64,000 bases of DNA. Source: Escherichia coli. GTDB lineage: Bacteria; Pseudomonadota; Gammaproteobacteria; Enterobacterales; Enterobacteriaceae. This document shows positions 2,171 through 63,728 of this stretch, piece after piece. The DNA lies in NCBI RefSeq assembly GCF_003018255.1, contig NZ_CP027440.1; one strand, written 5' to 3'. Within the stretch, counting starts at the first letter, position 1. Every line of letters starts with the position of its first letter. The notes below the pieces were generated by a model. That model searched no databases. It was not told where the DNA came from and was given only the letters and a program-made list of their open reading frames with translations. Made by a program: the position numbers and the translations under genes.

Positions 2171-3136
2171 ATGTCAGACTATCAAATGTTTGAAGTACAG
2201 GTGAGTCAGGTGGAACCGCTTACCGAACAGGTGAAACGCTTCACGCTGGTGGCAACCGATGGCAAACCGCTGCCTGCGTTCACCGGAGGAAGTCACATCA
2301 TAGTGCAGATGAGCGATGGTGATAACCAGTACAGCAATGCGTATTCACTACTGAGTTCACCGCATAACACCTCTAGTTATCAGATTGCCGTTCGACTGGA
2401 GGAAAACTCGCGCGGCGGTTCCCGCTTTTTGCATCAGCAGGTAAAAGTGGGCGATCGGTTAACGATTTCAACGCCTAATAACCTGTTTGCGCTAATTCCC
2501 TCGGCCAGAAAGCATCTGTTTATCGCGGGCGGTATTGGTATCACCCCTTTCCTGTCGCACCTGGCAGAGTTGCAATACAGCGACGTCGACTGGCAGCTAC
2601 ATTACTGCACGCGAAATCCAGAAAGTTGCGCATTTCGTGATGAGCTAGTCCAGCATCCACAGGCTGAGAAAGTTCACTTACATCACTCATCAACCGGAAC
2701 ACGACTGGAATTAGCGCGATTATTGGCGGATATCGAACCTGGCACACATGTTTATACCTGTGGCCCCGAGGCGCTAAATGAAGCGGTAAGAAGTGAAGCT
2801 GCGCGTCTGAACATCGCCGCCGATACGCTGCACTTTGAGCAATTTGCTATCGAAGACAAAACCGGCGATGCATTTACCCTGGTGCTTGCCCGTTCCGGAA
2901 AAGAGTTTGTGGTGCCGGAAGAGATGACTATTTTGCAGGTTATTGAAAATAATAAAGCAGCGAAAGTGGAATGTTTATGTCGTGAAGGGGTATGCGGAAC
3001 CTGCGAAACGGCAATACTGGAAGGTGAAGCTGACCATCGGGATCAGTATTTTAGCGATGAAGAGCGTGCCAGCCAGCAAAGTATGTTGATCTGTTGTTCG
3101 CGCGCGAAGGGTAAACGCCTGGTGTTGGATTTGTAG
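2171..3136 (+). CDS. yeaX: Carnitine monooxygenase reductase subunit (ferredoxin-NAD reductase with C-terminal 2Fe-2S ferredoxin domain), 321 aa
   Basis: ORF 2171..3136; C-terminal CxxGxCxxC ferredoxin motif (CREGVCGTC); adjacent to yeaW. Confidence 0.92.
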   Translation: MSDYQMFEVQVSQVEPLTEQVKRFTLVATDGKPLPAFTGGSHIIVQMSDGDNQYSNAYSLLSSPHNTSSYQIAVRLEENSRGGSRFLHQQVKVGDRLTISTPNNLFALIPSARKHLFIAGGIGITPFLSHLAELQYSDVDWQLHYCTRNPESCAFRDELVQHPQAEKVHLHHSSTGTRLELARLLADIEPGTHVYTCGPEALNEAVRSEAARLNIAADTLHFEQFAIEDKTGDAFTLVLARSGKEFVVPEEMTILQVIENNKAAKVECLCREGVCGTCETAILEGEADHRDQYFSDEERASQQSMLICCSRAKGKRLVLDL

Positions 3137-3140
3137 TTTG

Positions 3141-3177
3141 CCGAAGCCGGACTGAGCGCGCCCAGTCCGGCTTCGGA
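3141..3177. terminator. GC-rich 14-bp inverted repeat between convergent yeaX and rnd (likely bidirectional terminator)
   Basis: ccgaagccggactg ... cagtccggcttcgg palindrome directly after the yeaX stop codon. Confidence 0.5.
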
Positions 3178-3182
3178 AGATT

Positions 3183-4310
3183 TTACTGCGGATATTCCTG
3201 CAATAAATTGTGTAATGCTTCCGCCATCAGCTCACCACGCCAGCCGGAAATCAGCTCCGGCAAATTGTTCTGCGGTTTCAGTTTCCAGTGCCAGTTCAGC
3301 AGTTGGTTGATTTGCCGACGCGATGCCAGCAATTCGGCGCTGATCTTGTGCGTTTCGCTCACGTCAGTAATCAGCGACTTAATCGCTTTAAACGCTTTAC
3401 GATAACCCGGCATGTCCATCAGGTTAAGCATCGGCTGCGGTAAGGCCTCTTCCGGCAATGCCTGCGCTTTTTCCACCAGCGCCAGCAGCGTTTTACCGTG
3501 AAAGCGGATTTCGCTACCGGATAAGCCCAGGCTGTCCAGTTCGCCTAAACTTCCCGGCATATAACGCGCTACGGACCACAAATGCTCTTCACGCACGACA
3601 AAGTTCACTGCCAGATCGCGCTCCCGCGCCTTGCGCAGTCGCCAGTCGGCTAACAGTTGCAGACAGGCCAGTTGGCGTGTGCGTAACTGCCAGGCATTGG
3701 TGATATCACGCCAGGCATCTTCCGGAGCAACGACTTCCTGACGACGCATTTGCATCAGGCGGCATTCATCCAGCGCCGCAGGTAGCCAGCCGGAGGCCTC
3801 CGTTTCTACCATAAGCTTTGCGGTGATCGGTAACAGATACCAGACATCCGCCGCTGCGTATTCACACTGACGTTCGGTCAGCGGTCTGGCCAGCCAGTCG
3901 GTGCGCGATTCACTCTTGTCCAGCGTAACGCCGGAATACTCTTCCACCATGGAAGCGAAACCCCATGACATCGGGCGTCCGCAGAAGGCAGCAAGGATTT
4001 GCGTGTCAATCAAGGGTTGTGGTAATTCGCCAAAGACATTGAGGAACACTTCCAGATCTTCACTGCCCGCATGGAGAAATTTTGTGATGGACGGATCGCG
4101 CAGGATCGCTTTCAGCGGTGACCAGTCAGAGATCCCGAGGGGATCAATTAGCGCCAGATGCTCACCATCAAAAAGTTGAATTAGACCCAGTTGCGGGTAA
4201 TAGGTGCGCGTACGAACAAATTCAGTATCCAGGGCTATCGCCGGAAAGGCACGGACGGCTTCACACAAAGAAGCCAGCGCATCGTCCGTGGTAATCATTT
4301 GGTAATTCAA
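3183..4310 (-). CDS. rnd: Ribonuclease D, 375 aa
   Basis: ORF 3183..4310 minus; translation matches RNase D (3'-5' exonuclease plus HRDC domains); length exact. Confidence 0.95.
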   Translation of the reverse strand: MNYQMITTDDALASLCEAVRAFPAIALDTEFVRTRTYYPQLGLIQLFDGEHLALIDPLGISDWSPLKAILRDPSITKFLHAGSEDLEVFLNVFGELPQPLIDTQILAAFCGRPMSWGFASMVEEYSGVTLDKSESRTDWLARPLTERQCEYAAADVWYLLPITAKLMVETEASGWLPAALDECRLMQMRRQEVVAPEDAWRDITNAWQLRTRQLACLQLLADWRLRKARERDLAVNFVVREEHLWSVARYMPGSLGELDSLGLSGSEIRFHGKTLLALVEKAQALPEEALPQPMLNLMDMPGYRKAFKAIKSLITDVSETHKISAELLASRRQINQLLNWHWKLKPQNNLPELISGWRGELMAEALHNLLQEYPQ

Positions 4311-4379
4311 ATTGTATTCTCTTTAGTGGGCGTCAAAAAAAACGCCGGATTAACCGGCGTCTGACGACTGACTTAACGC

Positions 4380-6065
4380 TCAGGCTTTATTGTCCACTTT
4401 GCCGCGCGCTTCGTCACGTAATTCTCGTCGCAAAATTTTTCCGACGTTAGATTTCGGTAACTCATCACGAAACTCCACCAGCTTCGGTACTTTGTAGCCC
4501 GTGAGCTGACGGCGGCAAAAAGTCACCAGTGACTCTTCGGTAAGTGATGGATCTTTTTTCACAACGAAGATTTTCACCGCTTCGCCACTGGAGCCAGAAG
4601 GTACGCCAACAGCCGCGACTTCCTGTACGCCAGGATGCTGCATGACGACATCTTCAATCTCGTTGGGATAGACGTTAAAACCGGAAACCAGAATCATGTC
4701 TTTTTTACGATCGACAATACGCAGGAATCCTTCTTCATCCATCACCGCGATGTCGCCAGTGTGTAACCAGCCATTTTTGATGATTTCATCGGTAGCATCC
4801 GGACGCTGCCAGTAACCCAGCATCACCTGCGGTCCTTTGACACAAAGCTCACCTGGTTGACCCGGTGGTACTTCGTTGTCGTCGTCATCCACCAGTTTGG
4901 CTTCCGTCGACGGCACCGGCAAACCGATGCTACCACTATGATAATCAATATCATACGGGTTAACGCTGACCAGCGGCGCACACTCGGTCAGGCCATAACC
5001 TTCCAGCAGATACTGCCCTGTCAGTTTCACCCAACGTTCTGCCACCACTTGCTGAACAGGCATCCCACCGCCTGCGGAAAGGTGCAGACTGGAGAAATCC
5101 AGCTGCTGGAACTCTTTATTGTTCAGCAACGCATTGAATAAGGTGTTAACGCCAGTGATAGCGGTAAACGGATATTTCGCTAACTCTTTTACCAACCCTG
5201 GAATATCGCGCGGGTTAGTGATAAGCAGGTTCTGCCCACCCAGTTCGATAAACAGCAGGCAGTTAATGGTCAGTGCAAAAATGTGATAAAGCGGCAGCGC
5301 CGTCACCACCAGCTCTTTGCCCGGATGCAACAGCGGACCATAGGTCGCGTTAACCTGTTCCAGGTTCGCCAGCATATTGCGGTGAGTCAGCATCGCGCCT
5401 TTCGCCACACCAGTGGTACCGCCGGTGTATTGCAGGAAAGCTAAATCTTCCGGCACCAGTTCGGGTTTGACGTACTGCATCCGGTAGCCGTTGTGCAGGG
5501 CGCTACGAAATGAAATGGCATCTGGCAGATGGTATTTCGGCACCAGACGCTTGATGTATTTAACAACAAAATTGACTACCGTGCCTTTTGCCGTAGATAG
5601 CTGATCGCCCATACGGGTCAGAATTACGTGCTGAACGGCGGTTTTATCAACCACTTTTTCCAGAGTGTGGGCAAAGTTAGACACGATAACAATCGCCGAT
5701 GCGCCGCTATCGTTAAGCTGATGCTCAAGTTCACGCGGGGTATACAACGGGTTAACGTTTACGACAATCATCCCGGCACGCAAAATGCCAAACAGCGCCA
5801 CCGGATATTGCAATAAATTAGGCATCATCAACGCAACGCGATCGCCTTTCTTCAGTCCCAACCCTTGTTGCAAATAAGCGGCAAACGCGCGACTGCGTTC
5901 TTCCAGTTTGCGGAAGGTCATCACCTCCCCCATATTCACAAACGCGGGTTGATCGGCGTAGCGCGCGACCGACTGCTCAAACATATCTACCAGAGATTGA
6001 TAACGGTCAGGGTTGATCTCCGTCGGAACGTCCGCGGGATAACGGTTAAGCCAAACCTTCTTCAA
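4380..6065 (-). CDS. fadD: Long-chain fatty-acid CoA ligase FadD, 561 aa, TTG start
   Basis: ORF 4380..6131 minus; known N-terminus [10 protein letters not shown] begins at the TTG codon at 6063-6065; AMP-binding motif [12 protein letters not shown] present. Confidence 0.93.
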
Positions 6066-21576: not shown

Positions 21577-21593
21577 GTTATCAATTTAGCCAA

Positions 21594-21642
21594 AGCTATG
21601 TTTAGTGTATTTTTAATAATCAGACATAGCTTAGGCTATATT
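21594..21642. promoter_or_regulatory. Candidate MntR operator(s) upstream of mntP
   Basis: Palindromic ACATAGC-ttag-GCTATATT at 21624-21642 and half-site GCTATGTTT at 21595-21603. Confidence 0.45.
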
Positions 21643-21774
21643 ACCCCTTCCCTTATTTGTTATTTATTTTAACGTTTCATTGATATATAAATCTAAATGA
21701 AAATCGTTATCAATAAAGCAATGAAATAATATATTCCAACAGTTGTTTTATATTCTCAAAATATGTTAAGGTTG

Positions 21775-47080: not shown

Positions 47081-47100
47081 AACTGTGATTTTATACAGTA
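47081..47100. promoter_or_regulatory. LexA (SOS) box in yebG promoter
   Basis: aaCTGTgattttatACAGta, the CTGT-N8-ACAG palindrome, 18 bp upstream of yebG start. Confidence 0.8.
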
Positions 47101-61682: not shown

Positions 61683-62294
61683 TCATAACGCGGCGCGTAG
61701 GGCTTCGCGAATTAATGTTTCACTGCTGGCGTCAGGGCGAGCGATTTTGCTCACCATACGGCTTGCTTCTTGTGGTTTATAGCCCAGCGCCACCAGCGCA
61801 GCAACCGCTTCCTGTTCAGCATCGTCGGTCGCCGGGCTGGCAGGTGACGTGAGTACCAGGTCGGCGGCTGGCGTAAAGAGATCGCCATGCAAACCTTTAA
61901 ATCGGTCTTTCATTTCGACAATCAAGCGTTCGGCGGTTTTTTTGCCAATACCCGGCAGTTTCACCAGTGCCCCCACTTCTTCACGCTCAACGGCATTAAC
62001 GAACTGCTGCGCTGACATTCCGGAGAGGATCGCCAGCGCCAACTTCGGGCCGACGCCGTTGGTTTTGATCAACTCTTTGAACAACGTGCGCTCTTGTTTA
62101 TTGTTAAAACCGTACAGCAGTTGCGCGTCTTCACGCACCACAAAGTGGGTGAAAACGATCGCTTCCTGACCCGCTTCAGGGAGTTCATAAAAACAGGTCA
62201 TCGGCATATGCACTTCATAGCCTACGCCGCCCACTTCAATTAACACCAGCGGGGGTTGTTTTTCAATGATGATGCCTCTGAGTCTGCCTATCAC
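61683..62294 (-). CDS. ruvA: Holliday-junction DNA-binding protein RuvA, 203 aa, GTG start
   Basis: ORF 61683..62294 minus. Confidence 0.96.
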
Positions 62295-62343
62295 ATGACG
62301 CTCCTGCGTAATGAATCAAAGATAATGCTGTATGATAAAAAAA

Positions 62344-62363
62344 TGCTGGATAGATATCCAGCG
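62344..62363. promoter_or_regulatory. LexA (SOS) box of ruvAB promoter
   Basis: tgCTGGatagatatCCAGcg, a perfect palindrome about 50 bp upstream of ruvA start. Confidence 0.75.
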
Positions 62364-62568
62364 AAGGATGAAGAAAACTTGCGAGGTGTCCCGATGATCT
62401 GAAAAATGGCGCAGTATAATTTATTCTACAGATTATATTGGAAGCAAATATTTAAATATTACATATTCAGCGAAGAAATGTGTAATAAAAATACACATCG
62501 CGACCCCTGAAAAAATAAATTTTTTATGCTATTACGTATATTCATATCTATTTCAATGGAATGACAAC

Positions 62569-63172: not shown

Positions 63173-63694
63173 TTAACGCAGTCGCCCTCTCGCCAGGTTC
63201 AGCCGCGATTCGCTCATCTGCATCGCATTCTGACTGACGTGACAATGGGTAATCGCGATAGCTAATGCATCGGCAGCATCCGCCTGTGGATTAGCGGGCA
63301 GTTTCAGCAAGGTGCGGACCATATGCTGCACCTGGCTTTTTTCGGCACTACCAATACCTACCACCGTTTGCTTTACCTGACGTGCCGCATATTCAAATAC
63401 CGGCAATTCCTGATTCACCGCTGCCACAATCGCCACGCCGCGCGCCTGACCCAGTTTCAGGGCTGAGTCAGCGTTCTTCGCCATAAAGACTTGTTCAATG
63501 GCGAAATAATCAGGCTGGAACTGGGTGATGATTTCCGTCACGCCCGCATAGATGAGCTTCAGACGAGACGGTAAATCATCCACTTTGGTGCGTATGCATC
63601 CGCTACCCAGGTAGGACAGTTGCCTGCCTACCTGGCGGATGACGCCATAGCCGGTCACGCGCGAACCCGGGTCAATGCCGAGAATAATAGCCAT
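63173..63694 (-). CDS. ruvC: Holliday-junction resolvase RuvC, 173 aa
   Basis: Second ATG of ORF 63173..63697 ([18 protein letters not shown]). Confidence 0.94.
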
Positions 63695-63728
63695 CACGCG
63701 TCTCCGTTTTGCTGTTTAGCAGGCCTCA

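Follow-up and report, generated by a model that had tools for sequence, protein, structure and literature searches.

The 274-bp spacer between ruvA and yebB, near one end of the 64,000-nucleotide stretch of Escherichia coli DNA analysed here (the window), is fully explained by elements that are already known and annotated: the SOS promoter and operator of ruvAB, the small gene yobI and the divergent gene yebB. An open reading frame (ORF) on the plus strand of the same spacer, which had been put forward as a possible unannotated gene, is a spurious chance antisense shadow of yobI and not a gene. We place the probability of this combined reading at about 90%. The features on which it draws are listed below by window position.

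61683–62294, minus strand: ruvA coding sequence, GTG start at 62294 (ORF list; RefSeq annotation of a 100%-identical genome and of K-12)
62332–62360, minus strand: ruvAB sigma-70 promoter, −35 TGGATA (62360–62355), 17-nt spacer, −10 TATCAT (62337–62332) (promoter scan)
62335–62362, minus strand: terminator-like element, 7-bp stem GCUGGAU/AUCCAGC with loop AUCU (62362–62345), then A-U7-A-U (terminator scan)
62344–62363: LexA (SOS) box, reading tgctggatagatatccagcg, and CGCTGGATATCTATCCAGCA on the ruvA strand (sequence)
62406–62510, plus strand: 34-codon ATG ORF, spurious, codon-aligned antisense to yobI (ORF list)
62433–62498, minus strand: yobI, 21 amino acids, ATG at 62498–62496, TAA at 62435–62433 (RefSeq WP_072123646.1)
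62504–62508, minus strand: yobI Shine-Dalgarno sequence AGGGG, 5 nt before the ATG; AGGAG or AGGAGG in other alleles
62507–62535, plus strand: candidate yebB promoter, CTGAAA-17-TATTAC (hexamers from PMC3946193, located in the window)
62541–62567, minus strand: candidate yobI promoter, TTGTCA-15-TATGAA (K-12: TACAAA), a weak match (hexamers from PMC3946193)
62569–63171, plus strand: yebB, GTG start, divergent from yobI and ruvA (ORF list and annotation)
63173–63697, minus strand: ruvC (ORF list)

Known elements of the ruvA–yebB spacer

This end of the window is the ruvB–ruvA, yebB and ruvC–yebC region of E. coli, and positions 62295–62568 are exactly the spacer between ruvA, the first gene of the SOS-regulated ruvAB operon, and yebB, the product of which is a YebB-family permuted papain-like enzyme (NCBIfam NF008547, 405 bits). 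A 501-bp query around the spacer found matches in 5425 of 5426 complete E. coli genomes, several of them 100% identical; at least 80% of the spacer was covered in 5394 genomes and less than 80% in 31 of the 5425. Most E. coli genomes are 95–96% identical to the window over the spacer, K-12 among them at 95.3%. For allele-level comparison we aligned the spacers of two sister Escherichia species and 11 E. coli alleles, the latter being the window, K-12 and a further nine spaced evenly along the ranking by identity.

The preliminary description of this DNA had placed a ruvAB LexA box at 62344–62363, and correctly so: tgctggatagatatccagcg is the reverse complement of CGCTGGATATCTATCCAGCA, the ruvA SOS box as printed in PMC3009722. 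The box is a perfect 6+6 palindrome (CTG-N10-CAG) overlapping the ruvAB −35 hexamer, and the promoter hexamers called by our scan, TGGATA and TATCAT, are identical to those given for ruvAB by Shimada 2014 (PMC3946193). The bare CTG-N10-CAG pattern is unspecific, with 29 copies in the window against 13 expected. Positions 62295–62386, which take in the ruvA start, the promoter and the LexA box, show no variation among the 11 sampled E. coli alleles, and the core CTGGAT-N4-ATCCAG is in place at 74 of the 76 other Enterobacteriaceae loci that have enough upstream DNA. A recurrent peptide at these loci, KKCWIDIQR, is no more than the conserved operator DNA in translation. The ruvAB operon is repressed by LexA until DNA damage triggers the SOS response, and an operator lying over the −35 hexamer would impose that repression until induction.

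Two further candidates next to the box were rejected. A second LexA box in ctgtatgataaaaaaa (62324–62339) has no CAG half-site at the right spacing, and an ATG on the yebB strand at 62372, considered as the remnant of a longer gene, opens ORFs that diverge downstream. Elsewhere in the window, CTGTGATTTTATACAG at 47083–47098 is the reverse complement of the core of the yebG SOS box, published as TATACTGTATAAAATCACAGTTATT (PMC3009722), and constitutes a second LexA operator.

Upstream of the promoter the spacer is as extremely AT-rich as had been described. The GC content is 25% over 62400–62549, compared with 50.4% for the whole window, in which equally AT-rich 150-bp windows make up 0.2%; an example is the run aaaaaataaatttttta at 62510–62526. 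The window's lowest GC content over 150 bp, 23%, is at about 21580–21760, in the yobD–mntP intergenic region upstream of the mntP leader. Taken together, the elements of the ruvA–yebB spacer are four: the ruvAB promoter with its LexA operator, yobI, a weak candidate promoter for yobI and, divergent from the latter and within the AT-rich DNA, a candidate promoter for yebB.

yobI on the ruvA strand

The preliminary description had a very small annotated protein, YobI, somewhere in this gap, and rightly so. In a genome 100% identical to the window over the 501-bp query, RefSeq names the product 'stress response small protein YobI' (WP_072123646.1), and in K-12 MG1655 yobI is b4677, at 1946115–1946180 on the minus strand between ruvA (b1861) and yebB (b1862); Fesenko 2024 gives 1946114–1946180 on the same strand. 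The accompanying suggestion, that the plus-strand ORF might itself be yobI, falls on the same annotation, which puts the gene on the opposite strand as 21 codons at 62433–62498. It follows that 'unannotated' holds for the plus-strand ORF and not for the gap, in which yobI is annotated on the other strand.

Family membership and position agree. The YobI ORF matches NCBIfam NF038179 ('stress_YobI') with 61.2 bits against a cutoff of 33 (E = 6.4e-17) over profile positions 1–21 of 21, and it lies on the ruvA strand in the ruvA–yebB gap, as does b4677 and as do nine further alleles. The annotation is present on every intact allele fetched. The exact YobI sequence of the window occurs on at least 1000 public contigs, and five YobI alleles are each found on between 577 and at least 1000 public contigs under that name. 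The name is also borne by an unrelated P-loop NTPase family.

Upstream of the start codon, none of the 11 E. coli alleles has lost the Shine-Dalgarno sequence; the predicted anti-Shine-Dalgarno duplex has an energy of −6.0 kcal/mol in the window and −10.3 kcal/mol in K-12, values that rank among the strongest 5% and 1% of random 20-mers, respectively. Hexamers for yobI, and others for yebB, were assigned by an RpoD genomic-SELEX study (Shimada 2014, PMC3946193); the candidate yobI promoter that they define was missed by our consensus promoter scan. A literature search for ribosome-profiling or UV-transcriptome evidence on yobI returned none. yobI is an annotated 21-codon gene on the ruvA strand, has its own Shine-Dalgarno sequence and would encode a small hydrophobic protein. 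The gene was reportedly discovered by Hemm in 2008 with a ribosome-binding-site model, and an epitope-tagged YobI product was reportedly described by Hemm in 2008 and 2010. Translation of yobI is putative in this account, and rests on the annotation, the Shine-Dalgarno sequence and this earlier work.

Constraint and distribution of yobI

As an ORF, yobI is unremarkable: an ATG ORF of at least 21 codons appears in 87.5% of dinucleotide-preserving shuffles of the spacer. Its frame is open in 11 of the 11 sampled E. coli alleles. Positions 62387–62545 form a polymorphism hot spot within E. coli, and the DNA around yobI is about 5% polymorphic. The changes within yobI among the sampled alleles comprise about five nonsynonymous (M1I, C2Y, A10T, F15L and L18F) against three synonymous, in keeping with a weak constraint on the protein. 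One of these changes affects the start codon at window position 62496, where UPEC69 and Escherichia sp. MOD1-EC7003 (L002) have ATA instead of ATG. RefSeq still annotates the ATA-start gene of UPEC69, under the same accession, WP_072123646.1. In the other sister Escherichia (L010) a 7-bp deletion breaks the yobI frame. Separately, a 1-nt insertion in an A run of E. coli Seattle 1946 fuses an upstream 28-codon minus-strand ORF (the equivalent of 62459–62545) to the yobI frame, giving a potential 37-residue product extended at its N terminus; RefSeq keeps the 21-residue form.

At least one E. coli strain dispenses with the gene. The complete genome of AST85 (NZ_AP043644.1, 2001816–2006892) has no yobI; only the 77 bp next to ruvA, with the promoter and LexA box, match the spacer, and a divergent yebB allele (80% DNA identity) and two other genes occupy the yobI site (positions 2578–4800 of that locus). 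By tblastn against 80 RuvA-anchored Enterobacteriaceae loci, YobI-like sequence was found only in Escherichia. Collectively, these comparisons indicate that yobI is a young, Escherichia-restricted and weakly constrained small gene that is missing from some E. coli. A TraDIS study listed yobI as 'potentially essential', having recovered no transposon insertions in it (Goodall 2018, PMC5821084). The natural strains that have an ATA start or lack the gene argue against essentiality, and we suggest that the 66-bp target size can explain the lack of insertions.

These observations also lend some weight to an explanation under which yobI does not function as a gene at all, being a young or fortuitously translated ORF, and the AT-rich stretch matters chiefly as an H-NS-bound regulatory spacer, which would carry the divergent yebB and yobI promoters and keep both apart from the ruvAB promoter. 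Such a spacer would fit the restriction of yobI to Escherichia and its decay in the sister species (ATA start in L002, frame break in L010), the ATA start in UPEC69, the absence from AST85, and the existence under weak constraint of at least five protein alleles of a product 21 residues long. It would also fit the report of Fesenko 2024, in which yobI falls into a genus-specific cluster, is classed as non-TM and has no AlphaFold-Multimer partner above the 0.75 cutoff among eight neighbours, and that of Shimada 2014 (PMC3946193), which marks H-NS in the ruvA–yobI spacer. The signals for translation pull the other way. Each of the 11 E. coli alleles has both a good Shine-Dalgarno sequence, up to AGGAGG, and an open frame, the latter despite surroundings that are about 5% polymorphic, and NCBI curates an equivalog family for the protein (NF038179). 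The lack of TraDIS insertions points in the same direction, within the limit that target size may explain it. A tagged product was also, as noted, reportedly seen in 2008. Weighing both sides, we regard a non-functional yobI as a serious possibility that nevertheless falls well short of even odds, and we retain yobI as a small gene in the main reading.

The plus-strand ORF as an antisense shadow

The ORF of about 34 codons at 62406–62510 is present as had been described, with an ATG start and no Shine-Dalgarno sequence (anti-Shine-Dalgarno energy +0.3 kcal/mol). The preliminary description had allowed that it may be spurious, and several lines of evidence now favour that view. In 2000 dinucleotide-preserving shuffles of the 274-bp spacer, 43.5% contained an ATG ORF of at least 34 codons, so its length is no more than chance would give. 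Its frame carries in-frame stops in 4 of the 11 E. coli alleles (K-12, UPEC69, O55:H7 TB182A and strain 1303) and in both sister species (L002 and L010). The stop falls after 16 codons in K-12 and at codon 4 in UPEC69, and O55:H7 TB182A has two; matches found by tblastn outside E. coli also carry stops. Neither this ORF nor two other spacer ORFs matched an NCBIfam family, and three alleles of the plus-strand ORF were absent from a collection of about 15 billion predicted proteins.

The geometry of the two frames suggests how the ORF arose. yobI lies wholly inside it, and both start at remainder 0 modulo 3, an arrangement that makes the plus-strand frame codon-aligned antisense to yobI. In such a frame, stops opposite yobI arise only at TTA, CTA or TCA codons of the gene, and in the strain from which the window comes the ORF is open by chance. 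Consistent with this, the TAA that closes the ORF in K-12 mirrors the F15L change of yobI, TTT to TTA.

We considered whether the ORF could instead be a real, strain-specific small-protein gene that forms an antisense pair with yobI. It does have an ATG start, 7 of the 11 sampled alleles keep it whole, and leaderless or otherwise Shine-Dalgarno-independent initiation is known in E. coli. These points are outweighed by an initiation region with no Shine-Dalgarno pairing (+0.3 kcal/mol), by a promoter scan that shows no plus-strand promoter upstream, by the stops noted above in both sister species and four of the E. coli alleles, by a length at chance level, by a hydrophilic, low-complexity product that has no family match, and by its never having been called among the 15 billion predicted proteins; we consider a gene here very improbable. 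A different candidate, the 28-codon minus-strand ORF at 62459–62545, was rejected, as its ATG is lost in K-12 and varies among alleles.

The plus-strand ORF, being an antisense shadow, should stay off lists of candidate small proteins. ORFs of 30-odd codons are to be expected by chance in AT-rich spacers, and antisense to a real small gene the codon-aligned frame has a particularly good chance of being open, so that both situations call for caution.

A structured small regulatory RNA encoded by the AT-rich stretch, in place of a peptide or alongside one, is equally improbable. The putative yobI transcript of about 200 nt would end at the terminator-like hairpin, and dual-function small RNAs that also encode tiny proteins exist (PMC8916003). 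We rejected the idea when an Rfam scan of either strand gave no family match at E ≤ 1. In addition, the transcript has a marginal folding advantage over shuffled sequences, 8 of 200 of which fold at least as stably (z-score −1.96), the stretch varies greatly among alleles and is missing beyond Escherichia, and the Term-seq tables of Adams 2021 have no entry named yobI or ruvA.

Variable DNA between ruvC and ruvA

Comparison across genera places the AT-rich DNA in a wider setting. ruvC is the immediate upstream neighbour of ruvA, at a distance of about 80 bp, in 48 of the 76 species examined, and yebB or other genes stand between the two in Escherichia, in Pseudocitrobacter and in some Kluyvera, Superficieibacter and Klebsiella. 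Depending on the species, the ruvC–ruvA site (loci L002–L081) contains nothing, yebB, or predicted membrane proteins of about 220–270 residues, one of which begins MMKIRVVKSLFFMLLIIVSGYYLL (loci such as L015, L020, L047, L050 and L058). In E. albertii and E. coli AST85, further hypothetical genes separate yebB from ruvA. Together with yebB, the AT-rich DNA would then be the Escherichia-type insert between ruvC and ruvA, and we infer that the AT-rich yobI stretch is part of a variable insert, the site of which is prone to recombination and flanked by two conserved genes.

A search for the yobI–yebB segment on plasmids and phages found nothing mobile and no phage match. The E. coli 'plasmid' matches are records of 0.4–4.9 Mb, which we read as chromosomal sequence filed as plasmid, and two Salmonella records from the plasmid search match yebB only.

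A terminator-like hairpin at the LexA box

The hairpin at the LexA box is a side observation, and may be new as a putative terminator. On the ruvA strand it folds with −10.6 kcal/mol (z-score −6.4) and has the anatomy of an intrinsic terminator, namely a stable, G+C-containing hairpin with a U-tract directly after it on the transcribed strand; the LexA box and the promoter spacer occupy this very DNA. The hairpin lies about 55–75 nt upstream of ruvA across loci L003–L081. In the 48 species in which ruvC is adjacent, the stem begins some 13 nt past the ruvC match and has 9 bp (−14.0 kcal/mol); with yebB and yobI in between, as in Escherichia, the outer stem pairs have been lost to leave 7 bp.

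From this arrangement we tentatively propose that the ruvAB LexA operator could double as a Rho-independent terminator for the gene upstream, ruvC in most Enterobacteriaceae and yobI in E. coli, a proposal that we consider somewhat doubtful. Conservation of the hairpin cannot be credited to termination, because the same DNA is operator and promoter spacer and the stem bases are LexA contacts. Searched by gene name, the Term-seq tables of Adams 2021 gave no row for yobI or ruvA, and neither of the two yebB rows lies at the U-tract; low transcription of yobI may account for the absence. If the proposal is right, termination at the LexA box would shield the SOS-controlled ruvAB promoter from read-through that is independent of LexA.

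The same tables record a strong primary 3′ end for ruvC in K-12, at 1946817 on the minus strand (about 63135 in the window), antisense to the 3′ end of yebB (Adams 2021). From this position, E. coli ruvC transcripts terminate within the convergent yebB coding sequence.

Comparison with known systems

Set against the known E. coli ruvAB SOS box, the copy in the window shows no difference. Compared with typical CTGT-(AT)4-ACAG boxes, the ruvA box has a more G+C-rich stem and a U7 run directly after it, and for these two reasons it also scores as an intrinsic terminator. With Rho-independent terminators the palindrome shares a stem of 7 bp (9 bp in most genera), a 4-nt loop and then U7; it differs from them in that it doubles as operator and promoter spacer and shows no covariation.

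The closest relative of the window's small gene is K-12 yobI (b4677), with which it shares strand, position, 21-codon length, Shine-Dalgarno spacing and 18 of 21 residues. The differences are C2, A10 and F15 in the window for Y2, T10 and L15 in K-12, and a weaker Shine-Dalgarno sequence, AGGGG as opposed to the stronger AGGAGG of K-12.

The plus-strand ORF resembles known antisense shadow ORFs in that it is likewise codon-aligned opposite a real gene and is closed by a single sense-codon change. It departs from them in overshooting the gene at both ends, by 27 nt past the stop codon of yobI and 12 nt past its start codon; because these extensions run into the AT-rich spacer, its full length depends on chance too.
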